Both the position numbers and the translations under genes were made by a program. A stretch of DNA of 64,000 nucleotides, from contig CAXXLV010000002.1 of assembly GCA_963664305.2 (NCBI GenBank), forward strand, positions 96,001 through 160,000. Reading direction: 5' to 3'. Under the pieces are notes generated by a model. It saw nothing but the letters and a program-made list of their open reading frames with translations. It was not told the origin of the DNA and searched no databases. Every line of letters begins with the position of its first letter. Positions within the stretch are counted from its first letter, which is position 1. This document shows, one piece after another, positions 3,321 to 60,152 of the stretch. Origin of the DNA: an uncultured Aliarcobacter sp. (GTDB taxonomy: Bacteria > Campylobacterota > Campylobacteria > Campylobacterales > Arcobacteraceae).

Positions 3321-3330
3321 AGGCTAAATT

Positions 3331-4473: not shown

Positions 4474-4487
4474 AAGGAAAATATATA

Positions 4488-5679: not shown

Positions 5680-5817
5680 TTCATTCCTTAATTTTTAATT
5701 TTATATTATCAAATTTAGTTTTAATTATGATTAAAATTAAATGCTAAGAAATTATTTTTTGTCTATTTATTAAAGTTTTTATATGTTTTTTTGTAAGATA
5801 AAATAAAAAGGTTTTTT

Positions 5818-6132: not shown

Positions 6133-6133
6133 T

Positions 6134-6706: not shown

Positions 6707-6792
6707 ACAAAATCCTTATAATTATTAATTTATTATAACATTTATAAAAAAAACTATATAATGTATAAAATATTATATTATTTGGAAATAAA

Positions 6793-7895
6793 ATGAAAAA
6801 GAACTTTATTTTGATTATTATTTTAGTTCTTATTTCCTCAATCTTCTTTTATATTTTCTTTTATAAAAAAGAAGAAGTTATAAAAATCGGATTTGTTGGA
6901 GCATTAACTGCAAAATATTCTGTTTTGGGAAATGCTATGATGAATGGAATAGTTTTAGCTTTTGAAGAGGAAGATTTTCGAGTTAATGGCAAAAAAGTTG
7001 AGCTTATTTTTAAAGATGATAAAAAAGATATTGAATTAAATAAAAAAATTGTAAATGATTTTATAAATCAGGGAATAAAAATAGTCATAGGTAACGTAAC
7101 AAGTAGTATGACTAAAATATCAATGTCTATTATAAATCAACATTCTGATATGTTTTTAATTTCTGCTGCTTCTGCAAGTAATGAATTTTCTGGTATAGAC
7201 GACCAGTTTTTTAGAGTTCATGTTGCAAATAATGAACAAAGATTTTCAAGTTTTGTAGATTATATAAATGATTTAGGCTTTAAAAAAATTTATGGAATTT
7301 ATGATCCAGGAAATATAACTTACACAAAAGATTATTTGGAAAATTTTGAAAAAACTTATATAAATAAGGGTGGAGAAAAATTTATTCAATACTCAAAAAG
7401 TGATGATTTAGATTATTTAGTTCAAGATATAAAAGAAAAAAATCCTGATTTATTATTGATTTGTGCAAATTCAGTTGATGGTGCGAGAATTGTACAATAT
7501 TTAAGAATAAATGGTATTTCAACTCAAATTGCTTCATCTGAATGGGCAATGACTTCAACTTTTATTGAAAATAGTGGTAAATATAGTGAAGGAATAATTT
7601 TTAATATTGACTATGATGTAAATGCAAAAAATGAAAAATTTTTAAAATTTGTTAATAATTTTGAAAATAAATACAATATTTTCCCTTCAATGTATGCTGC
7701 AAAAGGTTATGAGTTAGCAAAAATTATAATAGAACTTTTAAAAATAGGAGAAGAGACAGAACTTAAAAAAATATTTTATTAAAAAAAGAGTTTGAAGGAC
7801 TTCAAAATACAATAATTTTTGATAGATTTGGAGATGTTGTAAGAGATTTTAATACCTTTAAAATTATTGATGGAAAGTTTGAGAAAATAAAATGA
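6793..7895 (+). pseudogene. LivJ/Peripla_BP_6-type solute-binding protein, frameshifted at an A7 tract (7765-7771); as sequenced it stops at 7782
   Basis: N-terminal TM anchor, IKIGFVGALTAKYS, IVIGNVTSSM. Adding one A at 7765-7771 continues the frame (NILLKKEFEGLQNTIIFDRFGDVVR...KIK) to TGA 7893-7895, which overlaps the next ATG as ATGA. Confidence 0.8.
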
Positions 7896-10042: not shown

Positions 10043-10072
10043 CTTGACATTATATGACTCAAGTGCTATAAT
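10043..10072 (+). promoter_or_regulatory. Sigma70 promoter of clpB overlapped by an HspR-type HAIR operator
   Basis: TTGACA 10044-10049, 17-bp spacer, TGC-TATAAT 10064-10072. CTTGACA-N7-ACTCAAG 10043-10063 matches the HAIR consensus CTTGAGT-N7-ACTCAAG at 12 of 14 positions. Confidence 0.85.
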
Positions 10073-10103
10073 TTTATTAGCAATTAAATAATAGGAGTGC
10101 TAA

Positions 10104-33184: not shown

Positions 33185-33607
33185 ATGTTAGACATAAGTC
33201 CTGTATTATTGCTTAGCTCTGGTATCATCTTTCTTTTAGTTGTTGCTAGACTAAACAGTTGTCTTTTCAAGCCATTATTAAAGCACATGGATGATAGAAC
33301 AGCTTCTATAAAAAAAGATTTAGAAGATGCAAAATCAAACGGTGCTGATGTTGATGGTTTGTTAGCGGAAGCAAATGAAATCATTTCTAAAGCTAAAAAA
33401 GAAGCAGCTGCAATTAGAGAACAAGCTTATAAGGAAGCAAAGGATAGTGCTGATGCAAAACTTGCAAGTGCTAAATCTAATTTAGAAGCAAAATCTGTAG
33501 AATTTGCTAAAAACTTACAAGACGAGACTAAAGCTCTAAGAGATTCTTTAGTATCTTCTATGCCTCAATTTAATGAGAGCCTAAAAGCTAAGCTTAGCTC
33601 TATTTAA
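33185..33607 (+). CDS. atpF': F0F1 ATP synthase subunit b'
   Basis: N-terminal TM, FKPLLKHMDDR, coiled coil; first gene of the atp cluster. Confidence 0.9.
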   Translation: MLDISPVLLLSSGIIFLLVVARLNSCLFKPLLKHMDDRTASIKKDLEDAKSNGADVDGLLAEANEIISKAKKEAAAIREQAYKEAKDSADAKLASAKSNLEAKSVEFAKNLQDETKALRDSLVSSMPQFNESLKAKLSSI

Positions 33608-33622
33608 TAAAGGGATTAGAAT

Positions 33623-34135
33623 ATGAAAAGATTATTATTACTTGGGTTAGCTTTAGCTCCTGTTGCATTATTTGCAAGCGAAGGTGCGGTAGAAACTGAT
33701 ATAGTACAAAGAACCGTTAACTTTATTATATTTGCTGGAATTTTATGGTATTTACTTGCTGATAAAATTAAAGCATTTTTTGCCAATAGAACTTTATCTA
33801 TTCAAGCAGAACTTGACAAAGTTCAAGAGACTTTAAAAGCTTCTCAAGATAAAGTTTCAGATGCACAAAAAAAACTTGAAGAAGCAAAAAAAATTGCTAC
33901 TGAAATTATTGAAGGTGCAAAAGCTGATATTGATTCAGTTAAACAAAAAGTTGCAACTGCTGTTGATGCAGATATCGCTAATCTAAATAAAAATTTAGAT
34001 GAAATGATGAAAGTAGAAACATCAAAAGCTAAAAGAAAAGTTGTTACTGAGGTTCTTGAAGAGCTATTAAGTTCTGAAAATATTCAATTAACTCAAAGCG
34101 AGTTAGCAAATATTGTTCTTAAAAAGGTAGCATAA
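33623..34135 (+). CDS. atpF: F0F1 ATP synthase subunit b
   Basis: RTVNFIIFAGILWYL, coiled coil. Confidence 0.92.
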   Translation: MKRLLLLGLALAPVALFASEGAVETDIVQRTVNFIIFAGILWYLLADKIKAFFANRTLSIQAELDKVQETLKASQDKVSDAQKKLEEAKKIATEIIEGAKADIDSVKQKVATAVDADIANLNKNLDEMMKVETSKAKRKVVTEVLEELLSSENIQLTQSELANIVLKKVA

Positions 34136-34665
34136 TGAAAGATTTAGTAGCAAAAAGATATGTAAAAGCTTTAATTGATGGTAGAGATAGTTCATCTATT
34201 AATACTATTAGTGAGAAGTTAAATGAAATTTCAACAGCATTTGCTGATGAAAAATTTAATTCTATTATTTCTTCACCAGAAATTTCATCGACTGAAAAAG
34301 TTAATTTAGTAACTTCATTTGTTGACGGTATAGATTATGCTTTAAGCAATTTTATTAAATTATTAGGTGAAAAAAGAAGATTAACTTTATTACCAAACAT
34401 TGCAGCTGAGTTAAGTGCTCAAATTGCAAAAAATAATAATAGTTATGTTGGTGTTGTTTATACTAATCAAGAATTATCAAGCGATTATGTATCTTCAATA
34501 GAAGAACAATTTAGTAGAAAATTTGATGTTAAATTATCATTATCACAAAATGTTTGTGACTATGATGGTATTAAAGTAGATATTGACGGACTTGGGGTTG
34601 AAATATCTTTTTCTAAAGATAGATTAAAATCACAGTTAATTGATCATATTTTAAAAGCAGTTTAG
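34135..34665 (+). CDS. atpH: F0F1 ATP synthase subunit delta
   Basis: VAKRYVKAL, NFIKLLGEKRRL; position before atpA. Confidence 0.93.
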   Translation: MKDLVAKRYVKALIDGRDSSSINTISEKLNEISTAFADEKFNSIISSPEISSTEKVNLVTSFVDGIDYALSNFIKLLGEKRRLTLLPNIAAELSAQIAKNNNSYVGVVYTNQELSSDYVSSIEEQFSRKFDVKLSLSQNVCDYDGIKVDIDGLGVEISFSKDRLKSQLIDHILKAV

Positions 34666-34686
34666 AACTTATAAAGGAGAAATTGA

Positions 34687-36204
34687 ATGGGTGCAAAAAT
34701 TCAAGCTGATGAAATCAGTTCTATAATAAAAGAAAGAATTGATAACTTTGAATTAAGTGTAGATGTAAATGAGACAGGGAAAATAATCTCTTATGCAGAT
34801 GGTATTGCTCAAGTTTACGGATTAAAAAATGTAATGGCTGGTGAGCTTGTAGAGTTTGAAAACGGTGAGAGAGGTCTTGCTTCAAACTTAGAAGAGTCTT
34901 CAGTTGGTATCGTTATCCTTGGAAAAGGTGAAGGTCTTAGAGAAGGAACATCTTGTAAAAGACTTGGAAAATTATTAGAAACACCAGTTGGTGAAGCTAT
35001 GGTTGGAAGAGTTGTTAATGCATTAGGTGAGCCAATTGATGGTAAAGGTCCTATTGCAGCAGCTGAGCATAGATTTGTTGAAGAAAAAGCTCCTGGAATT
35101 ATGGCTAGAAAATCTGTTCATGAGCCATTAACAACTGGTATTAAAGCTATTGATGCATTAGTTCCAATTGGAAGAGGACAAAGAGAGCTTATCATTGGTG
35201 ATAGACAAACTGGTAAAACTACAGTTGCAATCGATACAATTTTAAATCAAAAAGGTGAAAACGTTGTTTGTATTTATGTTGCTATCGGACAAAAAGCATC
35301 TTCAGTTGCAGCAGTTGTAAGAACATTAGAAGAGTCTGGTGCTATGGATTATACAATTGTTGTTAATGCTGGTGCTGCTGATTCATCTGCATTACAATTC
35401 TTAGCTCCATATACAGGTGTTACAATTGGTGAATATTTCAGAGATAATGGTAAACATGCATTAATCGTTTATGATGATTTATCAAAACATGCAGTTGCAT
35501 ATAGAGAAATGTCATTAATCTTAAGAAGACCTCCAGGAAGAGAAGCTTACCCAGGGGATGTATTCTATCTACACTCAAGATTATTAGAAAGAGCTGCAAA
35601 AATGTCAGATGAAAAAGGTGCTGGTTCTATGACTGCGTTACCAATCATCGAAACACAAGCTGGAGACGTTGCTGCATATATTCCAACAAACGTAATTTCT
35701 ATTACTGATGGACAAATTTTCTTAGAAACAAACTTATTTAACTCAGGTATTAGACCTGCAATTAATGTTGGTTTATCTGTTTCTAGGGTTGGAGGAGCTG
35801 CTCAAATTAAAGCTACTAAACAAGTTGCAGGTACTTTAAAATTATCTTTAGCACAATATAGAGAGCTTGAAGCGTTTGCTCAATTTGCATCAGATTTAGA
35901 TGAAGCTACAAGAAGAGAATTAGAACTTGGACAAAGAATGGTTGAAGTTTTAAAACAAGGTGTTAATAAACCACTTGTTATTGAAAAACAAATCGTTATT
36001 ATTTATGCAGGTACTAAAGGTTATTTAAATGATATCGCAGTTAAAGATGTTGTAAGATTTGAAAATGAATTACATGCATTCTTTGAGCAAAAATATTCAA
36101 ATATTTTAGAATCAATCAAAACTAAACAAAAATTAGATGATGATAATGAAGCTGAATTAAAAGCTGCATTAGAAGAGTTCAAAACTGTATTTAATGCAAA
36201 ATAA
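34687..36204 (+). CDS. atpA: F0F1 ATP synthase subunit alpha
   Basis: [32 protein letters not shown]. Confidence 0.99.
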
Positions 36205-36214
36205 GGATTAGCAA

Positions 36215-37099
36215 ATGGCTAATTTAAAAGAGATAAAATTAAAAATCGGTAGTGTTAAAAATACTCAGAAGACAACAAAAGCTATGAAGCTAGTTTCTTC
36301 TGCTAAACTTACTAGAACAAGACAATTGTCTGAGCAAGCTAGAAGTTATGCAGCGAAAATTAATGATGTTCTTTCTGATATTGCTGCTAGAGTGAGTACA
36401 GCTCATGAAGGTGGAAACATTAGTAGAGCTTTTGTTAGCAATGATAATCCAAAAACAGTTGATATTGTTTTTGTAACAGCTGATAAAGGTCTTTGCGGTG
36501 GATTTAATATGTCAACAATTAAAACTGTAAGTAGATTAATTGCTGAATATAAATCTAAAGGAATTAATGTAAGATTAAGAGCAGCTGGTAAAAAAGGTGT
36601 TGAATATTTTACATTCCAAAAGTTTAGTTTAGAACAAAAAGTAAGTGATTTAAGTTCTGCTCCTGATTATGACAGAGCTGCAGATTTTATAAATGCTGTT
36701 GTAGAAGATTTCAGAAATGAAGTTACTGATAAAGTAGTTTTAGTTTACAATGGTTTTTTAAATATGCTATCTCAAGAAATTAGAGTTAGAGAATTATTAC
36801 CAATTGGTTTAGATAATATTGAAGCTAAGAAAACTGAGTCAATGTTAGAAATTGAACCAGATGATGATGAAGAAGTATTAAACGAATTAACTGATAAATA
36901 TATTGATTTCAATATGTATTATGCATTAATTGACTCTTTAGCTGCTGAGCATTCTGCAAGAATGCAAGCAATGGAAGCTGCAACTAAAAATGCAAAAGAA
37001 AAAGTTAATAGTTTAACTGTTGAATATAATAAAGCTAGACAAGCTGCAATTACAACTGAGCTGATAGAAATTATCAGTGGTGTTGAAGCATTAAAATAA
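36215..37099 (+). CDS. atpG: F0F1 ATP synthase subunit gamma
   Basis: DKGLCGGFN, EHSARMQAM, NKARQAAITTELIEI. Confidence 0.99.
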   Translation: MANLKEIKLKIGSVKNTQKTTKAMKLVSSAKLTRTRQLSEQARSYAAKINDVLSDIAARVSTAHEGGNISRAFVSNDNPKTVDIVFVTADKGLCGGFNMSTIKTVSRLIAEYKSKGINVRLRAAGKKGVEYFTFQKFSLEQKVSDLSSAPDYDRAADFINAVVEDFRNEVTDKVVLVYNGFLNMLSQEIRVRELLPIGLDNIEAKKTESMLEIEPDDDEEVLNELTDKYIDFNMYYALIDSLAAEHSARMQAMEAATKNAKEKVNSLTVEYNKARQAAITTELIEIISGVEALK

Positions 37100-38512
<1,413 letters not shown>

Positions 38513-38534
38513 CAAAAAACCATTAAGGCATAAC

Positions 38535-38912
38535 ATGGATACAATTAGATTATCAATCGTTACACCTAATGGAGAAATATTTAATGATGATGTGAAAACT
38601 GTAACTCTTCCTGGAAAAGAGGGAGAGTTCGGTGTTCTACCAGGACATTCTTCATTAGTTTCTTCATTAACTGTTGGTGTAATTGTTATTGAAAAAGCAA
38701 ACTCTACTGAAGCTGTTGCTATTAACTGGGGACATGTTAAAGTAGATGAAAAATCAGTTGATGTATTAGCAGATGGAGCTATTGCATTAACAGCTGGAAA
38801 AGATTCTGAAATTGCTAAAAATATTGAAGCAGCAAAAGTATTAGTTAACTCTGTAAAAGATTCTAATATTTCTCTTGCATCAGTTGAAGCAAAAATCAAC
38901 TCATTTGCATAA
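38535..38912 (+). CDS. atpC: F0F1 ATP synthase subunit epsilon
   Basis: IVTPNG, PGKEGEFGVLPGH. Confidence 0.97.
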   Translation: MDTIRLSIVTPNGEIFNDDVKTVTLPGKEGEFGVLPGHSSLVSSLTVGVIVIEKANSTEAVAINWGHVKVDEKSVDVLADGAIALTAGKDSEIAKNIEAAKVLVNSVKDSNISLASVEAKINSFA

Positions 38913-38918
38913 AAGCTC

Positions 38919-39479
38919 ATGATTACTACATTACTAAATTATTTGGCAAATAGTAGTGCTATAACTTATATAGTTTTAGCACTATTGTCAACATATATTG
39001 TTATCACTTTCTGGGTTTTCTTTTATAGAAGAAGTATATTAAACGCACTTATCAGTAATGAACAAAAATCCTTAGAAGCATTGACTTCTAGAGAAACAAG
39101 ATTTTCTCCATTATCTGCATTAAATAAATGCTCTAATAACATAACTTCAAAAGAATTATTACATGCATGTGAAATTAATATTATGAAAGATGCAAGTTCA
39201 GGTTTATCATGGTTAGCAATTATTTCTTCTACATCACCATTTATCGGTCTTTTTGGTACGGTAGTTGGTATTCTAGAATCATTTGCTAAATTTGCAAATC
39301 AATCAAAAGTAGCGTTTTCAATTATTGCACCAGCTATTAGTGAAGCGTTAGTTGCTACAGCAGCAGGTATATTAGTGGCAATTTTTGCCTATACTTTCCA
39401 TCAAATTCTCACAAGAAAAGTTTATGAATTAAATGTTTTTCTTAAGGCACAATCACAAATTTTAATTGCTAAAGGGTAA
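38919..39479 (+). CDS. tolQ: TolQ/ExbB proton-channel protein of the Tol-Pal system
   Basis: SPFIGLFGTVVGI, ISEALVATAAG; upstream of tolR-tolA-tolB. Confidence 0.85.
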   Translation: MITTLLNYLANSSAITYIVLALLSTYIVITFWVFFYRRSILNALISNEQKSLEALTSRETRFSPLSALNKCSNNITSKELLHACEINIMKDASSGLSWLAIISSTSPFIGLFGTVVGILESFAKFANQSKVAFSIIAPAISEALVATAAGILVAIFAYTFHQILTRKVYELNVFLKAQSQILIAKG

Positions 39480-39483
39480 TAGA

Positions 39484-39873
39484 GTGTATGATCTTAATCA
39501 AAAACCAGATTTAAATATTACTCCTTTAGTAGATATTATGCTAGTTTTACTAGCAATACTTATGGTAACAGCACCTGTTATCGAATTTGAAGAACCGATT
39601 ACTCTTCCAACAGGAAGCAGATCTCAACAAACACAAGATGTTCAAAAAATTGATATTATTATTACAAAAGATAGAATCGTTACACTAAATAAAAATAAAA
39701 TAGAAATAGGAAATTTTGCAGATAGCTTTTTGCAATTTTCAAATGGAAAAGATCAAAATACACCCGTTTATATTCGTGCAGATAAAAGTTTAAAATATGA
39801 TGATATTATTTTTGTTTTAAAATCAGTTAAAGAGGCTGGTTTTTTCAAAGTGGCATTAGTTACAGACGGATAA
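39484..39873 (+). CDS. tolR: TolR/ExbD protein
   Basis: LNITPLVDIMLVLLAILMVTAP, IRADK. Probable start GTG 39484 (AAGGG SD). Confidence 0.87.
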   Translation: MYDLNQKPDLNITPLVDIMLVLLAILMVTAPVIEFEEPITLPTGSRSQQTQDVQKIDIIITKDRIVTLNKNKIEIGNFADSFLQFSNGKDQNTPVYIRADKSLKYDDIIFVLKSVKEAGFFKVALVTDG

Positions 39874-39876
39874 TGA

Positions 39877-40602
39877 ATGCAAAATAATTTTTCATTTATA
39901 GTTTCAGGTATAATCGCATTTTCTTTATATATTTGTTTATGTTTCTCTGTACTTTTTTATATTATGAGTCCAGAACAAAATATGATTAATATTACTCCTA
40001 CTTCAACTTCAATTGAACTTGATATGATAGTAGAAAAAGCAGAGAAAAAAATGGTTGAAAGAAAGGTTGAAAAAATTATTGAAGAAAAAGAAGTTGTTGA
40101 AAAACAAACTTCTGCTCAACAAGAAAAGAAACCAGATTTAAAATCATTATTTGCAAATGTTAAAGAAACAGCCAAAACTGTTACAAAAGAAGAAGTTAAT
40201 AATGTTCAAAAATCAATTGATCCTAAAAGATTTAAATCTAAATTTGAAAAAGAAAAGAAATCTTCAAATATTAAGATTGATAGATTGTTAGAAGACGAAA
40301 AAACAGCTACAAATACAAAAAGTACAAATGCAGCAAAAGGTGTTGAAACAGATGAATATTTTGCACAAATTAGTGAGATGTTATCTGCTTGGGTACCAGT
40401 TGGATCTGGATTAAAAGCGGTTGTTTTAATTATGATTGATTTAGAAGGTAGATTTGATTATAGTTTTGTAAAAAAATCAGGTGACAGTACATTTGATACA
40501 TCACTAGAAGCTTTTTTAAGTGAGCAGAAAAATATTGCTTATCCTAAACCAACAAAGGGTAAAGCAGTTAGAATTAATGTTGATTTCAAATCAGAAGGAT
40601 AA
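39877..40602 (+). CDS. TolA/TonB-C-terminal-domain protein
   Basis: N-terminal TM, Lys/Glu-rich linker, C-terminal KSGDSTFD motif; between tolR and tolB. Confidence 0.8.
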   Translation: MQNNFSFIVSGIIAFSLYICLCFSVLFYIMSPEQNMINITPTSTSIELDMIVEKAEKKMVERKVEKIIEEKEVVEKQTSAQQEKKPDLKSLFANVKETAKTVTKEEVNNVQKSIDPKRFKSKFEKEKKSSNIKIDRLLEDEKTATNTKSTNAAKGVETDEYFAQISEMLSAWVPVGSGLKAVVLIMIDLEGRFDYSFVKKSGDSTFDTSLEAFLSEQKNIAYPKPTKGKAVRINVDFKSEG

Positions 40603-40606
40603 AATT

Positions 40607-41878
40607 ATGTTTAGAATATTTTTGTTAATATCAATGATATTAAGTTCAGTTTTTGCAGAAGTAGATGCAAATTTAGAAATTATTAAAAAAGCAAATTCTG
40701 TACCTAAAATATTGGTATCAGTTGCAAGTGATACAATGGAAGTTGAAACTCTTAATAAAATAAAAAAAGGTATAGCTGATGACTTAAATGTTAGTGGTCA
40801 CTTTGAAATCGCAACGATTAATAGTCAAACAGCTTATGATAGTATACCTGATATTTTAAGTTTATCAAATCAAGGTGTAGGATTATTTTTAAATATCTCT
40901 GCAAAAAAAGAAGCTACAGGTGATTTTACACTTATGACTAAACTTTATAATATTGGTGCAAGAGCTTTAATTTTAGAAAAAAATTTCACTACTTCACAAG
41001 AGGATAGATATATATTTTTAGCTCATAAAGCTGCTATTTCTATTAATGATTTCTTTAAAGCTCCAAGTATTTCATGGATGGATAAATTTGTTGTTTTTTC
41101 AACGTATAAAGGGGCTGGTAAAGCTGATATTATGATTGGAGATTATACTTTAACTTATAAGAAAACAGTTGTTACTGGTGGTTTAAATATTTTCCCAAAA
41201 TGGGCAGATAAAGAGCAAAAAACAATTTATTATACATCTTATAACTATAAAAAACCTACATTAGTTAAATTGAATATATATAACAGAAGTAAAGACATAA
41301 TTATGGATTCTGATGGAATGTTAGCTTGTTCAGACGTAAATGAAGATGGAACTAAACTTTTAGTTACTGCATCTCCAACAGGTCAACCTGATATTTTCTT
41401 ATATGACACAAGAACAAGACAAAAAAGTCAAATCACAAGATACAGTGGAATTGATGTTGGTGGACAATTTATAGAAAATGGTTCAAGAATTGTTTTTGTA
41501 TCTGATAGATTAGGAAATCCAAATATTTTTGCACAAGGAATTAATTCTACAGCTGTTGAAAGATTAGTATATCACAGTAACAATAATTCATCTGCAACAG
41601 CACATGAAAATAATATTGTATATAGTAGTAAAGATTCAGATAATGAATTAGGTGGAAAAAGTTTTAATCTATATTTAGTTTCTACTAAAACAGATAGTTT
41701 AAAAAGATTAACTTCAAGTGGTGTTAATCAATTCCCAAAATTCTCTACAGATGGTGAAACTTTATTATTTATAAAAACATATGCTGGAGAGAGTTCAGTT
41801 GGTATTATTAGATTAGATTACAATAAATCTTTCTTATTCCCATTAACAGGTGGAAGAATTCAATCTATTGATTGGTAA
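40607..41878 (+). CDS. tolB: Tol-Pal system beta-propeller protein TolB
   Basis: Signal peptide from ATG 40607 (MFRIFLL...VFA), PD40-like repeats (FVSDRLGNPNIF, PKFSTDG), C-terminal SIDW. Confidence 0.92.
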   Translation: MFRIFLLISMILSSVFAEVDANLEIIKKANSVPKILVSVASDTMEVETLNKIKKGIADDLNVSGHFEIATINSQTAYDSIPDILSLSNQGVGLFLNISAKKEATGDFTLMTKLYNIGARALILEKNFTTSQEDRYIFLAHKAAISINDFFKAPSISWMDKFVVFSTYKGAGKADIMIGDYTLTYKKTVVTGGLNIFPKWADKEQKTIYYTSYNYKKPTLVKLNIYNRSKDIIMDSDGMLACSDVNEDGTKLLVTASPTGQPDIFLYDTRTRQKSQITRYSGIDVGGQFIENGSRIVFVSDRLGNPNIFAQGINSTAVERLVYHSNNNSSATAHENNIVYSSKDSDNELGGKSFNLYLVSTKTDSLKRLTSSGVNQFPKFSTDGETLLFIKTYAGESSVGIIRLDYNKSFLFPLTGGRIQSIDW

Positions 41879-41885
41879 TTCTTAT

Positions 41886-41913
41886 TTAAAGTATGGTTTA
41901 AACCATACTTTAA
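41886..41913. repeat. Perfect 28-bp palindrome at the tolB / dpsL convergent junction (probable bidirectional terminator)
   Basis: TTAAAGTATGGTTTAAACCATACTTTAA equals its own reverse complement. Confidence 0.85.
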
Positions 41914-42425
41914 TTTAAATTCTTTTTTATATCTATAATAAATTCTGTAATATCATCATGAAGAGTTTGTAAATCTTCCTCATGTTCAACTTCATCAGCT
42001 AAAATCTGACTTACAATATCATAAGTAACTATATCTTTATTTCTTGTTATTTCAACAATAGTTGAATATGTGTTTATTGCACACTGTTCACCTTTTATTG
42101 CATCCGTTAATATAGCAACAACATCAAAATTAGTTGGAGCATCATAACCACAATTTGTACTTTTTATCCAATCATTTGGATGAAGTAGAGGAGTACCTCC
42201 TAATTGAAGAATTCTATCTGCTAACATATTTGCATGTCTAAGTTCATCAGTTGCATGTTGTGTTAATTCAACAATTGCAGCATCTTTCATAATACCTTTA
42301 ACAACTTTTGCTTCAATAAAGTACTGATAGTATGCTAACCACTCATCTGCATATGCATTATTTAGAAGTTTTATGATTTCATTTATTTCAATACCTTTAA
42401 TGATTGAATTACCAATTCTAGCCAT
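41910..42425 (-). CDS. DPS-like (DPSL, thioferritin-type) ferritin-superfamily protein
   Basis: AYADEWLAYYQY, DELRHA, NCGY, GEQCAI, DEVEHEEDL: di-iron ExxH motifs plus the Cys pair typical of DPSL. Confidence 0.82.
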   Translation of the reverse strand: MARIGNSIIKGIEINEIIKLLNNAYADEWLAYYQYFIEAKVVKGIMKDAAIVELTQHATDELRHANMLADRILQLGGTPLLHPNDWIKSTNCGYDAPTNFDVVAILTDAIKGEQCAINTYSTIVEITRNKDIVTYDIVSQILADEVEHEEDLQTLHDDITEFIIDIKKNLN

Positions 42426-42573
42426 TTTATCCTCCTATTTTTCATTTAATTTCTATATTACAAGAGAAATTCTTAATTTAAAGTTACAATAGATGCTAAG
42501 ATTACAAAAATATAAACAATTATTAAGGTTCAATTTAATATTATTTCAGGAAATTTTATTTCAAGGAAAAAAT

Positions 42574-43110
42574 ATGAAAAAGTTAGGTATTTACTCGGTT
42601 TTAGTTGCAGCATTATTATTCACTACTGGTTGTAGCGAAAAAAATGTTGATATGAATGTTGATAACGGTGCTACTGCAGATGTTGCTCCAGCTACTGATA
42701 CAAATTTAGCTGATGGAAGCTTCTCTGCTTTAGAAAAAGCTGGAAACGGTAACTGGTATATGATCAATGGTCAAAAAGTTTTAATTGAGCACGTTTACTT
42801 CGGATTTGATAAATACGATTTAACTGCTGAAAACAAAGAAAAAGCTACTTCAAATGCTTCAAAATTATCACCATTAACTGCTGATACAACTGTAAAAGTA
42901 TTTGGTAACACTGACGAATGGGGAACTGATGAGTATAACTACGCATTAGGATTAAAAAGAGCTAACGCTGTTAAAGATGTTTTAGTAGCTAACGGTGTTT
43001 CTGCTAATATCTCTTTAGTATCTTTAGGTGAAAGTAACCCAGTTTGTACTGAAAAAACTAAAGATTGTTGGGCAAAAAACAGAAGAGTTGAACACGAATT
43101 AAGTAAATAA
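42574..43110 (+). CDS. pal: Peptidoglycan-associated lipoprotein
   Basis: Lipobox TTGC, YFGFDKY, GNTDEWGTDEYNYALGLKRA, KNRRVE. Start reassigned to ATG 42574. Confidence 0.95.
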   Translation: MKKLGIYSVLVAALLFTTGCSEKNVDMNVDNGATADVAPATDTNLADGSFSALEKAGNGNWYMINGQKVLIEHVYFGFDKYDLTAENKEKATSNASKLSPLTADTTVKVFGNTDEWGTDEYNYALGLKRANAVKDVLVANGVSANISLVSLGESNPVCTEKTKDCWAKNRRVEHELSK

Positions 43111-43115
43111 TTCTG

Positions 43116-44090
43116 ATGAATAAGTATCTTCTACCTCTATTAGTAGTAACTTCATTAACCGTAGCCGAAGAGGTTTCGGTTTATGGAGCTGGTGGTTCTT
43201 CGGACACTCCTTATGGGCTTAGTTCGACAGAAAAGCATATTATGAAAAACCAGTCAAATATAAGTAATTTATCTTCAAAAATTGGAGATATAAATACTTT
43301 AGTTGAGTCTATTAATAGAAGGTTAGAAGGCTTAGAATCTACATATGAAGGTGATTCTGCAAAATTAAACACAACTTCAAGAAAAGTTGATGAATTGATG
43401 CAAAAAATCGGTGGATCTTCAGATTTAGCTTCTAACAATAACACATCTTCTACAAATCAATCATCAGATCCTCAATTAGCAGAAACTGTTAATAATCTGA
43501 AAACTGCTTTAACTAAATTAACAGCTTTAGTTAATAAAATAAATTCAGAATATGTTTCTTCAACTGAACTTGAAAAAAACATGCAACAGTTTATTACAAG
43601 AGAAGAATTTGAGGCCTTGAAAAAAGCTATGGGTGTTAAAACATCACAAGTAAATCCTACAAAAACTAACGAAAAAAAATCTGCTGATGTAGAAGATAGT
43701 GCTGAAATAAAAAAAACTTTAACAGCGGAAGATAAACCAAAACTTTTATCTGAAGCAAAAAAAGATTTCGATGCAAAGAAGTATGATAGCGCTATACCTA
43801 AATATGAAAAATTAGTTGAAGTTAATTATAAACCTGCTGAAAGTAATTATTATCTAGGTGAAATGTGGTATATAAGAAAAAAATATGATGTTGCAATAAG
43901 TCATTTTAAAAAGTCTGCAATTCTAAATGATAAAGCAGCTTATATGCCAACTTTATTATTGCATAGTGCTATTTCATTTGAAAATACAAAAGATAAAGAT
44001 AATGCAAAAAGTTTCTATTCTACTTTAATAGACCTTTATCCTGACTCAAGTGAAGCAAAAATAGCAAAAAAAAATTTAGCTAAGTTATAA
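43116..44090 (+). CDS. CpoB/YbgF-like periplasmic coiled-coil/TPR protein
   Basis: Signal peptide, coiled coil, C-terminal TPRs ending LIDLYPDSSEAKIAK; follows pal. Confidence 0.82.
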   Translation: MNKYLLPLLVVTSLTVAEEVSVYGAGGSSDTPYGLSSTEKHIMKNQSNISNLSSKIGDINTLVESINRRLEGLESTYEGDSAKLNTTSRKVDELMQKIGGSSDLASNNNTSSTNQSSDPQLAETVNNLKTALTKLTALVNKINSEYVSSTELEKNMQQFITREEFEALKKAMGVKTSQVNPTKTNEKKSADVEDSAEIKKTLTAEDKPKLLSEAKKDFDAKKYDSAIPKYEKLVEVNYKPAESNYYLGEMWYIRKKYDVAISHFKKSAILNDKAAYMPTLLLHSAISFENTKDKDNAKSFYSTLIDLYPDSSEAKIAKKNLAKL

Positions 44091-54141: not shown

Positions 54142-54711
54142 ATGAATATAACTGTAAATACCCAAAATATAAAAGAAGAGCTGTTTTTAGAAGACTTAAA
54201 CGAATTTGATAATTTAGAAGAATTGGTTTATACAGTTATTGATGCTTGTCCTTATGATTTTGAATTTATTCCTACAATTGCTTCTTTTAAATATCTAACA
54301 AATTTTGACCAAATTGCAAAACTAAATGGTATTAGATATTTTTATAAAATGTATAAATTGATAGATTTATTATGTTTTTATAAAGCCTTAATTCAAAAAT
54401 ATGAAGAACAAACTAATCAAACAAATAATAAAATCTCAAATTGCACTCAACTAACTTTAGTTTTTGATGATAATCATCTATTTGAGAGTTGTCAAATAAA
54501 TGCAATAAAAATCTATAAAAATTGTTTTTTTACTCACAAAAATAAAAAACTAGATAATAAACTTTTAGCATATAGTTTAAATCATATTTTAAATGAATTT
54601 TTTGAGGAGTCTTATACTTCAAAATTAAAAGAGAAAGATATTAATAAAGATATAAAAGTAAGAGCTAATTTTATGGGTATTGATATTTTTACTTTTGAAA
54701 AAGAGTTATAA
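54142..54711 (+). CDS. Hypothetical cytoplasmic protein (189 aa)
   Basis: Strong AGGAG SD and clean ORF; no motif recognised. Confidence 0.75.
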   Translation: MNITVNTQNIKEELFLEDLNEFDNLEELVYTVIDACPYDFEFIPTIASFKYLTNFDQIAKLNGIRYFYKMYKLIDLLCFYKALIQKYEEQTNQTNNKISNCTQLTLVFDDNHLFESCQINAIKIYKNCFFTHKNKKLDNKLLAYSLNHILNEFFEESYTSKLKEKDINKDIKVRANFMGIDIFTFEKEL

Positions 54712-54760
54712 CTAAAATCTACAAATAAGCCTAAAATAGATAAAATCCAATTTCAAAATT

Positions 54761-54969
54761 TATCAAGTGAATTTTTTTATTCATGGGAAATAGGTGAAAA
54801 TCCTATACTGCCCCCGCAACGGTAATCGCATATATAATAAAATTTTTATTATGCCAATTTTTTAAAACCACTGTCATTTTGATGGGAAGGTAAAAATTGG
54901 TTTGAAAAAGTATGCTAAGTCCGGAGACCGACTTGATAGATAAAATGCAAATCAGGCGGGGTGACCTGA
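54761..54969 (+). ncRNA. Cobalamin riboswitch (long, adenosylcobalamin/class-I type)
   Basis: Closing stem TATCAAGT/ACTTGATA; GGGAA; ATAGG-TGAAAAT-CCTAT; ACTGCCCCCGCAACGGTAA; CCACTG...GGGAAGG; B12-box AAGTCCGGAGACC; downstream hairpin TCAGG-CGGGGTGA-CCTGA whose loop complements CCCCG. Confidence 0.95.
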
Positions 54970-55049
54970 AAAAAGCCATAAATTTATTAATAGTTTATTC
55001 TTCAAACCCTAAATGATTCTTGTATTAATTTTTATTAATAGGAAGTTTC

Positions 55050-58000
55050 ATGCTTTTATTTCGACATTTTTTAGTGTTGTTTTTTATATTTTTATTTAGT
55101 ACAAATTTATTTGCTAAAGAAAATAAAACAATTTTTTCCATAGTTTCAGATAGGTCAGCAATAACTTTAAATAGTGGTGCAAATACATATCTAAAAAATT
55201 CAAATGATAAAATTATCATACGAACAGTGAGTCAAGTATCTTTGATGAATGATGAGGAGTTGGATAACTATTTAAAAAATTCAGATGTAGTTCTTTTATG
55301 TGCAGTTTTTGGTGATGTAGTTGATAGATTATTAGCACGAAAATATGAAGCTTCACAACTTAGAATTTCTCTTCAAGGAGATAGAAGGCTTCTTAGTTTA
55401 AATAATGATTTCTTAGGAAATTCTTATAGTGATAATATAGATACTATTCTTGAAAAAGATAAAGAAAATCTAGGTTATATAAATTTTTTAGAGAAAAAAC
55501 AAAAAGAGTTTTCTTCTTATGCTTTTTATTTACAAGCAAGAGCTTATTGGGATAATAGAGGAAATGAAAATATCTCAAATCTTTTCTCTTTTTTATCAAA
55601 TCCAAATCTACAAAAAAACTCATGGCCAAAAGTTGTTGAATTAAAATCTATAAGATATTTTTTAGATGCAGATGATTCTAAAACATATTTTGATGTGGAT
55701 GACGTAATCAAAAAAATAGATTCTTCAAAAGATATTTTATTTGTTTTAGATAATGATAGAGCAGATAGTTTAAATGAGTGGAAAATACATGAAGAGTTAG
55801 TAAAAAAATCAAATTTTCAAGTAATATCTATCTTATCTTCTTGGGGAAAATCAAGTTTTGAAGCAGTTAAAAGTCTTGAAAATATTGTTTCAAAATTAGA
55901 TAAAAATCAAGGATTTTCAATTATTTCTTTACATGACTTTGTAATTGGAAGTGGTTTAGGTAAAGATGAAGTAAGTAGTGTTTTAGAAAGATTAAATGTA
56001 CCAGTTTTAAAAGGTCTTAGAGTTTTAGATTTATCATATTTAAACTATTCATTATCAAGTGAAGGATTACAAAAAAATTCTGTTCATTATAGAGTTTCAA
56101 TGCCAGAACTTCAGGGAATTGGACAAGTTCATATTCTTTCTTTAAATGAGGATTATATAACTGATGAAAAAACAGGAGTTACTCTTTTTTCTGTAAAAAT
56201 TTTAGATGATGAAATAAAAAATATTATTGAAAAAGCAAATAATTGGATAAAACTAAAAAAGAAAAATAATAAAGATAAAAAAATTGCCATCATTTACTAT
56301 AACCATCCTCCAGGACGACATAATATTGGAGCTGATAATCTAAATGTACCAAAATCACTTTTTAATATCTTAACTTCTTTAAAAGCACAAGGTTATGATG
56401 TTGGGACTTTGCCTGCAAATGATGAGGAGTTATTAAAAATTCTTCAAGAAAAAGCTGTAAATTTACCAAATGATAAAAAAGCATTAAAACAAATGAGCCC
56501 AAATATAAATAAAGTTGATGCAACTGAGTATAAAAATTGGTTCAAAACTTTACCAAATTATATTCAAGAAGAGATGCAAGATGGACCATTGGCTTTACTT
56601 CATGTAGAGATAAGAAATTTTTTAACAGCTGAAATTAAAACAATATCTTCTACAAACAAATCTTTAGCTTATAGTTCAATGAAAGATTATATGCATAAAA
56701 CTATGGATAATCTTCATCATGCAATGGATGGAGTAAGAAGCGAAAGCAGACAAAGAGCTGTAAATTTACTAGCACAGTTAAGAGAAGAGTATGAAAATAT
56801 TTTAACTTTATCTCAAGAAGAAAAAGAGTTTTCATTTGAATCTATGGATAAACTTAAAAAAGCTGTTATTGATTTAGGAATTGAAGGGATAAAAGGTTGG
56901 GGTGAAGCACCCGGAAATGTGATGGTTTATGAAGATAAACTTTTACTTCCAAGTGTTGAGTTTGGAAATATTCTTTTAGCACCACAACCACCTCGTGGTT
57001 GGGAATTAAATGAAGAGTTACTTCATGCAAACTTATCTTTTCCTCCAACTCATCAATATTTAGCTTTTTATCATTTTATAAAAGATAGTTTTAAAGTTGA
57101 TGCTGTTGTTCATGTGGGAAGACACTCAACTTATGAGTTTTTACCAAGAAAAAGTGTAGGGCTTACTTCAAAAGATTATCCATATTTGATGATTGGAAAT
57201 ATGCCAAGTATTTATCCATATATTGTTGATGGAGTAGGTGAAGGTATTCAAGCAAAAAGAAGAGGTCAGGCTATAATGATTGACCATTTAACGCCACCTT
57301 TATCAATTACAAAACTTTATGATGATTTATTGCAAATAAGACAGCTAATTGAAAGTGCAGAATCTGCAACAGATGAAATAGTAAGAAAGAACTCTATAAA
57401 AAAGATTAAAGAATCTATAGATAAAGCAAATCTAAAAGATGAACTTATTAATAGTATGGATGAAGAGTTAAAAGTTCGTGGTATTGGATTTGATGAGGTT
57501 GATGATGAATTTTTACTTCATGAAGTAGGGCATTATTTAACTCATCTACAAGAAGAGTTTATGCCTTTAGGACTTCATACTTTTGGACAAGATTGGAATG
57601 ATGATGCAGTTAATATTATGCTTAAATCAATGGGTGAAGAGAATACTAAAGAGGTAAAAGCAAATCTTATAAAATCTCCAAAAAATGAGATGAACTCTTT
57701 ACTAAATGCATTAAATGGTGGATATATAATTGCAGGAAAAGGAAATGACCCAATAAGAACTAAAGAGGCACTTCCAACTGGAAAAAACTTTTATGCACTA
57801 GATGGAAGTTTGATACCAAGTAGTATTGGATATGAAATTGGAGTGAAGTTAGCTCAAAAGGTGCGTGAAAATAAAAATTATGATATCAGAAAAAAAGAAG
57901 CGATAATTTTATGGGCATCAGATACAGTTAGAGATGAAGGCGCGATGATAGCTTTTGGACTTGATTTATTGGGGATTAAACCTGTGTGGAATAGTAGAGG

Positions 58001-59402
58001 AATTTTGCAAGGATTAGAACTTTTACCTTTAGATGAAAATAGAGTAAGAAGATATGATGTGATTTTTACTGGTTCAGGATTGTTTAGAGATTTATACTCT
58101 TCACAATTGGCTTTACTTGATAAAGCAGTTTTGATGTCTTTAGATGCTAGTTACAATGAGATAGTTTCAAAATATCCTGCTTTAACGCTTGCGTTAAATA
58201 AAGCTTTAGAACCTCTTGGAGATTTAAAAAAAGCTGGAAATGAATCTTTAGAGACAAATAGTGTGGCTTTAAATTGGGTAGATGAAGCAAGAGAAATTTT
58301 AAAACAAAATCCAAATATAGATGCAAATGAGTTAGGAAAAATATCTAGTAAAAGAGTTTTTGCAACAGCACCTGGTGCTTATGGAGCTGGAATAAATAGA
58401 TTAGCAGAACGTTCAAGTGCATGGAATGATAGAAAAGAGCTAGCAGATGTTTTCATAAAAAGAATGGGATATTCATACTCAGAAGATGGTTATGCACAGT
58501 TATCAGTTGAAAGTTTTGAAAGACAACTTCAAAAAGTTGAAAATACATATTTAGGAAGAGCAAGTAATTTATATGGATTAATAGATAACAATGATACTTT
58601 TGACTATCTTGGAGGATTGAATTTAGCTATTGAAAAAGTAACTGGAAAACAACCAAATAGTTTTGTAATAGATAATTCAAATGCAAATAATCTAAAAATC
58701 ACACCACTTGAAACAGCACTTTTAAGTGAGTTAAGAGGAAGATTTTTAAATCCTCAATGGATAAAACCACTTATGAATGAAGGATATAGTGGTGCAAGAA
58801 CCATGGGAAGTGAGTTTGTTGAGTATTTATGGGGATGGCAAGTTACAAGTCCTGAGATTATAAAAGATTGGGTTTGGGAAGAGGTTAAAGCTGTTTATAT
58901 TGATGATAAATTGAATCTAAAACTAGATGAGTTTTTATCTTCAAATTATCAAGTGCAAGTTCAAACAAATATGTTAGCTGTTATGCTTGTAGCTATTCAA
59001 AAAGATTTTTGGAAAGCAGATGAAAAAACACAAAAAGAGCTTTCTGAAAAATTTGCAAAAAATATAATAGAACATGGAATTCCAGGAAGTGGGCATACAC
59101 ATGCAAATCATCCGATATATGATTTTGTAAAATCAAAAATATCTAAAGAAGAAGCTAATAAATTAGAAGAAGTTTTAAGTGAAAGTCGAATGGAAAAAGA
59201 GAAAAAAGATAGTGTAACTTCTATTCAAGAGATAAAACTAGAAAATCAGAAAAATAAAAATGAAGAAAAAACAGAAGAGTTAAGTGAGAGTAAAAATAGT
59301 AATAAAGATGATTCTTATATGAAATATTTATTGGGTATTGCTTTTTTAATTTTACTTGTTGGTTTAGGTAAATCAATATTTTTTAATAAGATAAAAGGAT
59401 AA
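55050..59402 (+). CDS. Exported, membrane-anchored CobN/magnesium-chelatase-H family protein (BtuS/HmuS-like)
   Basis: KKIAIIYYNHPPG, FGNILLAPQPPRG, PPTHQYLAFY, HVGRHSTYEFLP, LPTGKNFY, SGLFRD, RFLNPQWI, GYSGA, YLWGWQVT. N-terminal signal peptide and C-terminal hydrophobic anchor. Confidence 0.9.
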   Translation: MLLFRHFLVLFFIFLFSTNLFAKENKTIFSIVSDRSAITLNSGANTYLKNSNDKIIIRTVSQVSLMNDEELDNYLKNSDVVLLCAVFGDVVDRLLARKYEASQLRISLQGDRRLLSLNNDFLGNSYSDNIDTILEKDKENLGYINFLEKKQKEFSSYAFYLQARAYWDNRGNENISNLFSFLSNPNLQKNSWPKVVELKSIRYFLDADDSKTYFDVDDVIKKIDSSKDILFVLDNDRADSLNEWKIHEELVKKSNFQVISILSSWGKSSFEAVKSLENIVSKLDKNQGFSIISLHDFVIGSGLGKDEVSSVLERLNVPVLKGLRVLDLSYLNYSLSSEGLQKNSVHYRVSMPELQGIGQVHILSLNEDYITDEKTGVTLFSVKILDDEIKNIIEKANNWIKLKKKNNKDKKIAIIYYNHPPGRHNIGADNLNVPKSLFNILTSLKAQGYDVGTLPANDEELLKILQEKAVNLPNDKKALKQMSPNINKVDATEYKNWFKTLPNYIQEEMQDGPLALLHVEIRNFLTAEIKTISSTNKSLAYSSMKDYMHKTMDNLHHAMDGVRSESRQRAVNLLAQLREEYENILTLSQEEKEFSFESMDKLKKAVIDLGIEGIKGWGEAPGNVMVYEDKLLLPSVEFGNILLAPQPPRGWELNEELLHANLSFPPTHQYLAFYHFIKDSFKVDAVVHVGRHSTYEFLPRKSVGLTSKDYPYLMIGNMPSIYPYIVDGVGEGIQAKRRGQAIMIDHLTPPLSITKLYDDLLQIRQLIESAESATDEIVRKNSIKKIKESIDKANLKDELINSMDEELKVRGIGFDEVDDEFLLHEVGHYLTHLQEEFMPLGLHTFGQDWNDDAVNIMLKSMGEENTKEVKANLIKSPKNEMNSLLNALNGGYIIAGKGNDPIRTKEALPTGKNFYALDGSLIPSSIGYEIGVKLAQKVRENKNYDIRKKEAIILWASDTVRDEGAMIAFGLDLLGIKPVWNSRGILQGLELLPLDENRVRRYDVIFTGSGLFRDLYSSQLALLDKAVLMSLDASYNEIVSKYPALTLALNKALEPLGDLKKAGNESLETNSVALNWVDEAREILKQNPNIDANELGKISSKRVFATAPGAYGAGINRLAERSSAWNDRKELADVFIKRMGYSYSEDGYAQLSVESFERQLQKVENTYLGRASNLYGLIDNNDTFDYLGGLNLAIEKVTGKQPNSFVIDNSNANNLKITPLETALLSELRGRFLNPQWIKPLMNEGYSGARTMGSEFVEYLWGWQVTSPEIIKDWVWEEVKAVYIDDKLNLKLDEFLSSNYQVQVQTNMLAVMLVAIQKDFWKADEKTQKELSEKFAKNIIEHGIPGSGHTHANHPIYDFVKSKISKEEANKLEEVLSESRMEKEKKDSVTSIQEIKLENQKNKNEEKTEELSESKNSNKDDSYMKYLLGIAFLILLVGLGKSIFFNKIKG

Positions 59403-59404
59403 AA

Positions 59405-59854
59405 ATGTTTTCATCAATTTCAGTTGGTTTAATGCACCAAATCTCATCACTTCTTTTAGAGCCTGTCTCTTGGGCTTTGCTTTTTTTTGTAGTTTTTTCA
59501 CTTTATGAAATAGGAATAACTATAGGTGAAAGAGTTATCGAAATCAAAAGATTGATAAATACTAAAGATAAAACTTTGGTTTTAAATGTTGCAAAAAAAA
59601 GAATAGAAAGAGCAGATTTTATCACAAGACTTGCTCCCATGCTTGGACTTATGGGAACTTTAATTCCTTTAGGTCCTGGGCTTGCAGCACTAGGTGATGG
59701 TGATGTTAAAATACTAAGTACTGCAATGAGTGTTGCTTTTGATACAACAGTTTTAGGATTACTTTGTGGAATGGTAGGTTTTGTAATAGCAAGACTAAGA
59801 AGAAGATGGTATGACAAAGCTTTAACTTTAATGGAGAGTGAAGATGAAAAATAG
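59405..59854 (+). CDS. MotA/TolQ/ExbB proton-channel family protein (HmuU-like)
   Basis: APMLGLMGTLIPLGPGL, AMSVAFDTTVLGL; starts 2 bp after the chelatase stop. Confidence 0.88.
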   Translation: MFSSISVGLMHQISSLLLEPVSWALLFFVVFSLYEIGITIGERVIEIKRLINTKDKTLVLNVAKKRIERADFITRLAPMLGLMGTLIPLGPGLAALGDGDVKILSTAMSVAFDTTVLGLLCGMVGFVIARLRRRWYDKALTLMESEDEK

Positions 59855-60152
59855 ATTTTCAAGCGAACATTTTTCTAAAGAAGATGATGAACCTCTTGGT
59901 CCTTTAGCAAATTTGGTTGATATCATTTTAGTTTTTGCTTGTGGTTTAATAGCTGCTTTAGTTGCTCTTAGTCCTAATTTACAAGAGCATTTTAAAGTGT
60001 CAACAGATACAAAAGTTATAACTCAAGGAAAAGAGTTGGTTGAAATTCCAAAAGAAATAAAAGAAAATATGGAAACAAAAGAGGGATATAAATCTTTAGG
60101 ACAAGTTTATAAAGACCCAAAAACTGGGAAATTGATATTAATTTCTGAATAA
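59844..60152 (+). CDS. DUF2149-type small membrane protein (ExbD-like TM, HmuV-like)
   Basis: DEPLGPLANLVDIILVFACGL, GYKSLGQVYKDPKTGKLILI. Probable start ATG 59844 (GGAG SD); overlaps the upstream gene. Confidence 0.82.
   Translation: MKNRFSSEHFSKEDDEPLGPLANLVDIILVFACGLIAALVALSPNLQEHFKVSTDTKVITQGKELVEIPKEIKENMETKEGYKSLGQVYKDPKTGKLILISE

Follow-up and report, generated by a model that had tools for sequence, protein, structure and literature searches.

A riboswitch-controlled CobN-like protein with ExbB-like and DUF2149 partners in an uncultured Aliarcobacter: a candidate envelope module for corrinoid salvage

What does a CobN-like protein do when it is encoded behind a cobalamin riboswitch and directly ahead of two genes resembling a proton channel? 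The question is raised by a locus in the window analyzed here, a stretch of 64,000 nucleotides (positions 96,001 to 160,000 of contig CAXXLV010000002.1, GenBank assembly GCA_963664305.2) from an uncultured Aliarcobacter sp. Public records label such proteins “cobaltochelatase subunit CobN.” Our analysis indicates that this one is not an ordinary CobN, and that the most likely role of the three-gene module (hereafter the triad) is to handle B12 precursors that the cell scavenges from its surroundings. The locus is laid out as follows:

54748..54950, + strand: cobalamin riboswitch aptamer (RF00174; Rfam 83 bits, E 6e-19)
54951..55049, + strand: leader or expression platform, holding an AGGAAG ribosome-binding site at 55040-55045
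55050..59402, + strand: CobN/ChlH-superfamily gene, 1450 amino acids (aa) (PF02514, 806.6 bits; cut-off 24.5)
59405..59854, + strand: MotA/TolQ/ExbB-like gene, 149 aa (PF01618, 40.7 bits; cut-off 22.9)
59838..60152, + strand: DUF2149 gene, 104 aa (PF09919, 46.8 bits; cut-off 27.1)

The aptamer match covers the full Rfam model (positions 1-189; gathering score 31.5), and it is the single RF00174 match in the whole 2.78-Mb genome; its alignment displays the B12 box AAGTCCGGAGACCGA and the core CUGCCCCCGCAACGGUAA. A first-pass annotation of this DNA had placed a B12 riboswitch ahead of the three genes, with a start at 54761, which lies inside the Rfam match. An intrinsic terminator was looked for on the + strand of the leader (54951-55049) and none was found, and the leader folded no better than shuffled sequences (z -0.7). 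The CobN-like and ExbB-like genes are separated by 2 bp (59403-59404). The DUF2149 gene has a GTG start and overlaps the ExbB-like gene by 17 bp, or by 11 bp if counted from an in-frame ATG at 59844; Pfam matches and coordinates thus agree with the earlier description of three tightly coupled open reading frames (ORFs). The same annotation had reported no AAA+ partner and no cob/cbi gene in the window, and our Pfam scans of 66 window ORFs (13 + 53) likewise identified no cob/cbi gene and no chelatase AAA+ partner; the ATPase-type families in those scans were ClpB and a ParA-type ATPase, and a canonical TolQ/TolR set was also present. Directly upstream of the riboswitch is a 189-aa ORF (54142-54711) that matches no Pfam or NCBIfam family.

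The public name and membership in PF02514 would suit an ordinary CobN that works in the cytoplasm in de novo B12 synthesis and has unrelated gene neighbors. However, the window protein falls under the curated cut-off of all nine NCBIfam CobN/BchH models, including the CobN equivalog model TIGR02257 (531.6 bits versus a cut-off of 822.05). Its best match in the PDB is HmuS (9d26; 391.7 bits), with ChlH at 335 bits and CobN at 320 bits. A pattern scan of data with one genome per species returned at least 594 stretches and at least 528 confirmed relatives, and all counts of loci given below use the best 80 of the 528. Using IQ-TREE in quick mode (LG+G4, with support from the SH-like approximate likelihood ratio test only), we built a maximum-likelihood tree of 54 proteins: the window protein, those of 36 of the 80 loci chosen for taxonomic spread, six that pass TIGR02257, three that pass TIGR02025, five from HmuY-containing operons, two others, and one receptor-linked copy. 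Omitted from the tree are locus L118, whose genome is unpublished, and the duplicate locus L119. The riboswitch-type proteins (hereafter B12-type) form one clade (37/37; support 100) that includes the window protein and has a long stem (1.21). This clade is sister to the Hmu-type and receptor-linked proteins (support 97); the six TIGR02257-passing proteins form a CobN clade (support 100) and the BchH proteins another (support 100), both apart from the B12-type and Hmu-type proteins. The protein of locus L105 has a long branch, and its grouping with the Hmu-type rows may be false, based on a warning from the tree tool.

Four features of the 1450-aa protein bear on where it resides and what it might do:

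55050..55115, + strand: signal-peptide-like N-terminus, residues 1-22, MLLFRHFLVLFFIFLFSTNLFA followed by KE (from the translation; cleavage site placed by eye)
57111..57242, + strand: conserved catalytic core H688, H692, E696, E731 (alignment to 9d26)
59220..59240, + strand: tether motif SIQEIKL, residues 1391-1397, clade-specific, with a low-complexity linker behind it
59319..59384, + strand: C-terminal transmembrane (TM) helix, residues ~1424-1445 (Kyte-Doolittle 19-residue mean 2.36)

In the 54-row alignment, a hydrophobic N-terminal segment is present in all B12-type and Hmu-type rows (with A-x-A-like ends called by eye in the rows inspected), whereas the hydrophobic stretches of canonical CobN/BchH rows are internal only. 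The C-terminal helix, followed directly by the basic tail NKIKG in the window protein, occurs in 36/37 B12-type rows (N masking hides the remaining one) and in 8/8 Hmu/receptor-type rows, versus 0/9 CobN/BchH rows. Because the protein combines a signal-like N-terminus with a C-terminal helix and basic tail, its predicted topology is a periplasmic body on a C-terminal membrane anchor. Within the tether motif, E1394 is found in 35/37 B12-type rows, and a tail alignment places GQKLE at this position in Hmu-type proteins; the motif is a candidate docking strand, as judged from conservation. The first-pass annotation had held that this is not ordinary cobN and had proposed that it may be a machine located in the envelope. 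Both points appear correct, given the scores under every NCBIfam cut-off, the position on the tree outside the canonical CobN clade and sister to Hmu-type proteins, and the predicted exported, tail-anchored topology.

The two small genes accompany the CobN-like gene far beyond chance. ExbB-like and DUF2149 genes lie directly downstream in 73/73 loci with enough sequence, whereas a lack of co-occurrence across genomes would, by the first-pass annotation, have refuted its proposal; in the other 7 of the 80 loci, the contig ends within 440 bases. No further gene family is common to more than 12/80 loci, which argues that the pair goes with the chelatase-like gene in inheritance and not with a receptor or with TonB. 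We looked for fusions of DUF2149 with longer proteins and found none, which is weak evidence.

In the ExbB-like protein, the motifs PMLGLMGTLIPLGPG and AFDTT are invariant in 24 sequences. Its predicted structure has three long helices (mean predicted local distance difference test [pLDDT] score 89.4), and the top ten Foldseek matches in the PDB are all ExbB/TolQ chains, with E values of 0.02-0.07 and none ≤0.001; a profile search against the PDB was also weak (E 0.055). The 104-aa protein matches PF09919 (DUF2149) and not the ExbD/TolR family PF02472, and its profile had no meaningful match among PDB sequences. It contains one TM helix with an aspartate, D28 (codon 59919-59921), that is invariant in 28 sequences; a TM aspartate is what we take to be the hallmark of ExbD/TolR. 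It also has a conserved C-terminal beta-hairpin, GQVYKDPKTGKLILI, although the monomer model is of low confidence (pLDDT 65). A complex prediction for residues 555-1450 of the CobN-like protein with the DUF2149 protein scored 0.01 against a mark of 0.32 and is evidence neither way. The pair resembles ExbB-ExbD, TolQ-TolR, and MotA-MotB in its PF01618 membership, its ExbB/TolQ-like predicted fold, and its one-TM partner with an invariant aspartate. In contrast to these known stators, it has a much shorter large subunit, a small subunit that belongs to DUF2149 and not PF02472 and whose periplasmic part is only ~55 residues, and no linked TonB or TolA gene.

Elsewhere in the window (33185-44090), an atp operon is followed directly by TolQ/ExbB (PF01618, 88.8 bits), ExbD/TolR, and a TonB_2-type TolA-like protein, and the run continues with an ORF of 452 aa that matches no family, then an OmpA/Pal-like and a TPR protein. 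Based on its family content, we read this run as a Tol-Pal-like set separate from the small pair of the triad. Since a canonical TolQ/TolR/TolA-like set is thus also encoded in the window, the ExbB-like/DUF2149 pair would be an extra, dedicated system.

The CobNST and ChlHID/BchHID chelatases share the PF02514 fold and conserved catalytic residues with the window protein; however, they work in the cytoplasm, depend on an AAA+ motor, and lack a membrane anchor. Our searches of the window genome, which cover all but 8000 bases of the 2.78-Mb assembly, identified the 1450-aa protein as the sole PF02514 gene, and the chelatase CobS profile (TIGR01650) had no match. PF01078 gave one strong match and two near 20 bits; the strong match is YifB (TIGR00368, 438.9 bits versus a cut-off of 362.4). 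Partners of the CobS/CobT and ChlI/ChlD type, for which the first-pass annotation had suggested a genome-wide search, were not found, and neither was the ring-synthesis protein CbiC. With cut-offs, clade, predicted topology, missing partners, and linkage of the triad in all 73 loci pointing the same way, we rejected the ordinary-CobN reading as very improbable.

If the protein is not an ordinary CobN, is it nevertheless an enzyme? H692, E696, and E731 are invariant in 54/54 rows across all clades, and H688 is a histidine in 53/54. Based on hand-counted positions in the alignment to 9d26, H692 corresponds to His-538 and E731 to Glu-577 of HmuS, residues whose roles we take from the part of PMC12583661 available to us. 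Because the catalytic histidines and glutamates of the superfamily are invariant, we expect the window protein to be active, as far as such conservation can tell. D1179 of the window protein has its counterpart only in canonical CobN. The positions of the HmuS dyad Asp-1208/His-1209 (also hand-counted) read Asn-Asp in the window protein; gammaproteobacterial proteins from Hmu contexts also have an aspartate at the His-1209 position. Residues invariant only in the B12-type clade include H419, R423, H424, R567, R569, H659, R691, H824-E-x-x-H828, and H1349. Speculatively, these clade-only histidines and many arginines would be in keeping with the capture of metal and with a polycarboxylate as substrate. 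At window positions 35, 205, 300, 660, 962, and 1234, an invariant histidine of the Hmu-type rows is replaced, and phmmer aligned nothing to 9d26 before residue 385 of the window protein.

HmuS of Bacteroides thetaiotaomicron (PDB 9d26) is an experimentally shown heme dechelatase according to the accessible text of PMC12583661; excerpts of PMC13227078 describe HmuS of Porphyromonas gingivalis and present HmuU and HmuV as still uncharacterized. The hmuYRSTUV operon resembles the triad in encoding a ~1450-aa membrane-bound, periplasm-facing CobN-superfamily protein without an AAA+ partner, together with the MotA/ExbB-like HmuU and the DUF2149 protein HmuV, and the window protein keeps the equivalents of His-538 and Glu-577. 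This parallel, first drawn in the earlier annotation, holds up: no PDB entry matches better than HmuS, and the sister clade is encoded by Hmu-type operons that have the same ExbB-like/DUF2149 pair. Unlike the hmu operon, the triad has no adjoining HmuY, HmuR, or HmuT gene and is under a B12 riboswitch, not iron or heme; the window protein belongs to its own long-stemmed clade, and the ExbB-like subunit has 149 aa versus 211-233 aa in Hmu-type operons. Whereas HmuS acts on heme, the substrate of the triad is presumably a corrinoid.

Hmu-like operons also occur outside Bacteroidota. Loci L101-L104 and L106 (~3200-12000 each) show that Colwelliaceae and relatives have a second, Hmu-like operon of receptor, HmuY-domain protein, ExbB-like, DUF2149, and CobN-like genes, and locus L105 (5506-14083), from Cellvibrionaceae, has the order receptor, CobN-like, 215-aa membrane protein, ExbB-like, and DUF2149.

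The riboswitch accompanies most relatives of the triad, being present in 71/80 related loci. A B12-box motif, or a core-plus-box pair, was found upstream in 61/80 loci, and Rfam confirmed 8/8 of those sampled; among the 19 motif-negative loci, all of which were scanned with Rfam, 10 have a + strand riboswitch in an operon-compatible place. In Colwelliaceae the operon order is riboswitch, 200-aa membrane protein, CobB, triad, and CobO, and in a Nitrospinae contig it is BtuB-like, triad, CobB, CobO, CobS, CobU, and CobD. In these loci the triad clusters with CobB and CobO, which mirror the steps on either side of cobalt insertion by CobNST, and BtuB is near.

In Colwellia-type operons, the riboswitch is followed first by a gene (locus L051, 5779-6384, and relatives; cluster 10) whose ~200-aa product is a polytopic membrane protein; it contains a TRTHHF motif and matches no Pfam or NCBIfam family. 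Of the members of its ESM Atlas neighbors, 21% have DUF6580, and the protein is a candidate carrier of corrinoids or metal. In two operons (L052, 5371-7218; L090, 6319-7896), a PepSY_TM gene of the siderophore-reductase family follows the riboswitch and precedes the CobN-like gene.

In the window genome, a btuB-btuF-btuD-btuC cluster (G000:C2:660284-667078; locus L019, 5239-12078) has cobB ~1.3 kb from it, with two small opposite-strand genes in between, and no cobalamin riboswitch was found at this cluster. CobQ, CbiB, CobD, CobU, and the CobS and CobT of the completion steps are encoded elsewhere in the genome, as is a MetH-sized, MetH-like B12-binding protein. We extended the comparison to 36 module genomes, consisting of the window genome and 35 others chosen from the 80 loci. 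CbiC/CobH is present in 5/36 and not found in 31/36, CobB is over its cut-off in 30/36, and the chelatase CobS is over its cut-off in 0/36; most of the 36 have no second PF02514 gene. Three of the five ring-building genomes have CbiX, and ChlD is over its cut-off in none of the five.

As a background, we used 200 genomes of the same class (G036-G235) in which the module was not seen at the thresholds used; CobB is over its cut-off in 81, and CbiC is present in 21. Among CbiC-negative genomes, CobB is present in 25/31 with the module versus 61/179 in the background (Fisher p 1.7e-6, a value that overstates the case because the sampled genomes are related to each other). Two unpublished background genomes, G074 and G176, have both CbiC and CobB and lie outside the 61/179. 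CobB had been considered as a marker of cobalt-free corrinoid salvage, and its frequency in the background weakens it in that role.

These host data bear on whether the triad, like HmuS, removes metal (cobalt or some other) from corrinoids or porphyrin-like compounds that have been imported, as a metal supply. The sister-clade relationship, the best PDB match, the stator pair shared with hmu operons, and the reductase-family genes in two operons all speak for such a dechelatase. However, 31/36 hosts, the window genome included, lack ring synthesis, so freed cobalt would be useless for their B12 synthesis and would not ease a B12 shortage. Moreover, six invariant histidines of Hmu-type proteins are replaced in the window protein, and His-1209 of HmuS is an aspartate. 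To our knowledge, taking cobalt out of a corrin without destroying the ring is very hard, if possible at all, which argues against the reverse reaction. Metal removal is thus distinctly unlikely in our judgment, and the evidence favors metal insertion or corrinoid handling in salvage; of the two directions of metal chemistry, insertion into a cobalt-free corrinoid is favored by the absence of a B12 gain from freed cobalt together with this corrin chemistry.

The reading we prefer, tentatively and with a little less than even confidence, is a periplasmic chelatase driven by the proton motive force (PMF) that metallates salvaged cobalt-free corrinoids. The triad would then be a self-contained, B12-repressed module of the envelope that serves to salvage corrinoids. 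At low adenosylcobalamin, the riboswitch would permit expression of the three coupled genes. The 1450-aa class I chelatase-superfamily enzyme would be exported and held at the periplasmic face of the inner membrane by its helix and flexible tether. The two small proteins would form a MotA/ExbB-type proton channel, with an ExbB-like ring around the Asp-bearing DUF2149 helices; as the periplasm has no ATP, this channel may take the place of the AAA+ ATPase (CobS/CobT, ChlI/ChlD) of cytoplasmic chelatases. In the likeliest reaction, Co2+ would be inserted into a cobalt-free, hydrogenobyrinic acid-type corrinoid that entered via BtuB, after which the product may be imported by BtuFCD and completed by CobB, CobQ, CbiB/CobD, CobU, CobS, and CobT. 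What we infer in this scheme is which way the reaction runs, what it acts on, how it is coupled to the proton channel, and in what stoichiometry the parts assemble.

A bolder version of the preferred reading is possible but doubtful. It would make the protein an extracytoplasmic cobaltochelatase driven by the PMF via a dedicated 5:2-type stator, providing a new entry point to B12 for ring-less bacteria that import cobalt-free corrinoids. Hydrogenobyrinic acid-type corrinoids shed by aerobic-pathway producers would be metallated in the periplasm and finished inside the cell, and the SIQEIKL tether motif would be the handle pulled by the DUF2149 hairpin.

Several observations weigh against metallation by a PMF-driven chelatase. 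The sister clade is of the dechelatase type, as represented by HmuS in the available text of PMC12583661, and a section heading of the same paper states that recombinant HmuS turns over heme alone, so a proton motor is not needed for the chemistry there. In 9 of the 80 loci, no riboswitch was found by motif or by Rfam. The PepSY_TM reductase-family genes in two operons hint at reductive chemistry. Genome-wide, no corrinoid adenosyltransferase of the CobA/CobO/BtuR or PduO type was found in the window genome. CobB was not detected over its cut-off in 6/36 module genomes, and its presence in 61/179 ring-less genomes without the module indicates that it is independent of the module. The module is surplus in the ring-builders (5/36, three of them with CbiX). 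In the literature, we found no functional test of any member of the B12-type clade; nor, as far as we searched, is the natural occurrence of free cobalt-free corrinoids reported.

Some of the same observations suit capture and hand-off without metal chemistry, in which a periplasmic corrinoid binder would pass its ligand to BtuF or to a membrane carrier, and the ExbB-like/DUF2149 pair would drive release or help energize BtuB (a “B12 uptake S” reading). This reading could also extend to further processing in the periplasm, for example reduction or upper-ligand removal. CobN binds its own substrate tightly, which provides a model for such a binder. The B12 riboswitch, the proximity of BtuB in some loci, the PepSY_TM genes in two operons, and the finding that CobB is not tied to the module are all consistent with capture. 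However, the catalytic His/Glu set is invariant across the clade, and a mere binder need not keep it; the triad has no conserved receptor or TonB neighbor (other families occur in ≤12/80 loci); and the genome already has BtuF.

Two published observations offer further support for capture. HmuS carries a second, non-substrate heme at a separate site, as stated in the accessible part of PMC12583661, and the relatives in Geobacter sit with exbB-exbD-tonB and receptors (PMC3403914). Based on excerpts, plasmid pSZ77 of Geobacter lovleyi has a cobN-exbB-exbD-tonB cluster whose CobN-like protein occurs without CobS/CobT (PMC3403914), and the Zur-regulated PA1922-PA1925 cluster of Pseudomonas aeruginosa has a CobN-like gene beside ExbB/ExbD-like genes (PMC4542158); in the portions available, both papers leave the function of these clusters open. 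Compared by description, both resemble the triad in combining a CobN-like gene without CobS/CobT with ExbB/ExbD-like genes. Unlike the triad, they include a TonB-dependent receptor (and, in Geobacter, TonB), and PA1922-PA1925 responds to zinc, not B12. On balance, we regard capture without metal chemistry as unlikely, though a good deal less so than an ordinary CobN.

The family is not new. As quoted in the part of PMC6460266 available to us, the name BtuS was coined for B12-linked loci by Rodionov in 2003, so the name invoked by the first-pass annotation is a real one. The same text describes BtuS1 and BtuS2 of Bacteroides fragilis as CobN-like, distinct from CobN and ChlH, and predicted to be exported to the periplasm and membrane-anchored, and reports their study for heme-iron use; excerpts of PMC13227078 identify BtuS2 as an HmuS homologue. 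Being CobN-like, in a separate clade, and under B12 control, the window protein fits the BtuS definition as quoted in PMC6460266, and the window triad is a further member of this named family. A literature search found nothing on the module in Campylobacterota; supplements were outside the search, and Dataset EV4 of PMC12583661 may show the cluster.

The nearest proteins bear the names Aliarcobacter, Arcobacter, and Poseidonibacter, and 11 Arcobacteraceae loci are among the relatives from the one-genome-per-species scan; 400 other Campylobacterota genomes that we sampled, 23 of them from the same family, had no match at E 1e-50 or better. Because the Arcobacteraceae copies are nested among marine gammaproteobacterial copies on the tree, the module probably came into Arcobacteraceae by horizontal transfer. 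The G+C content of the window genome is 27%.

Naming has consequences for annotation. The Hmu-type protein of locus L102 (7754-12010) scored 1218 bits against the “CobN” equivalog model NF004644, close to its cut-off of 1248, a near-pass that indicates how public “CobN” names blur exported dechelatase-type proteins with true CobN. The annotation “cobaltochelatase subunit CobN” would wrongly credit genomes with the triad with the aerobic cobalt-insertion step.

If metallation by a PMF-driven periplasmic chelatase is true, class I chelatases gain a second kind of motor, proton flux via an ExbB/ExbD-like channel, and cobalt-free corrinoids would be a new shared currency in B12 ecology. It would also explain why CobB and CobQ are kept by many ring-less marine Gammaproteobacteria and some Arcobacteraceae. 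The rival readings, too, would make the triad a widespread, B12-repressed device for corrinoid handling, with at least 528 loci in one-genome-per-species data, and it offers a testable case for a proton-driven chelatase and for the salvage of cobalt-free corrinoids.

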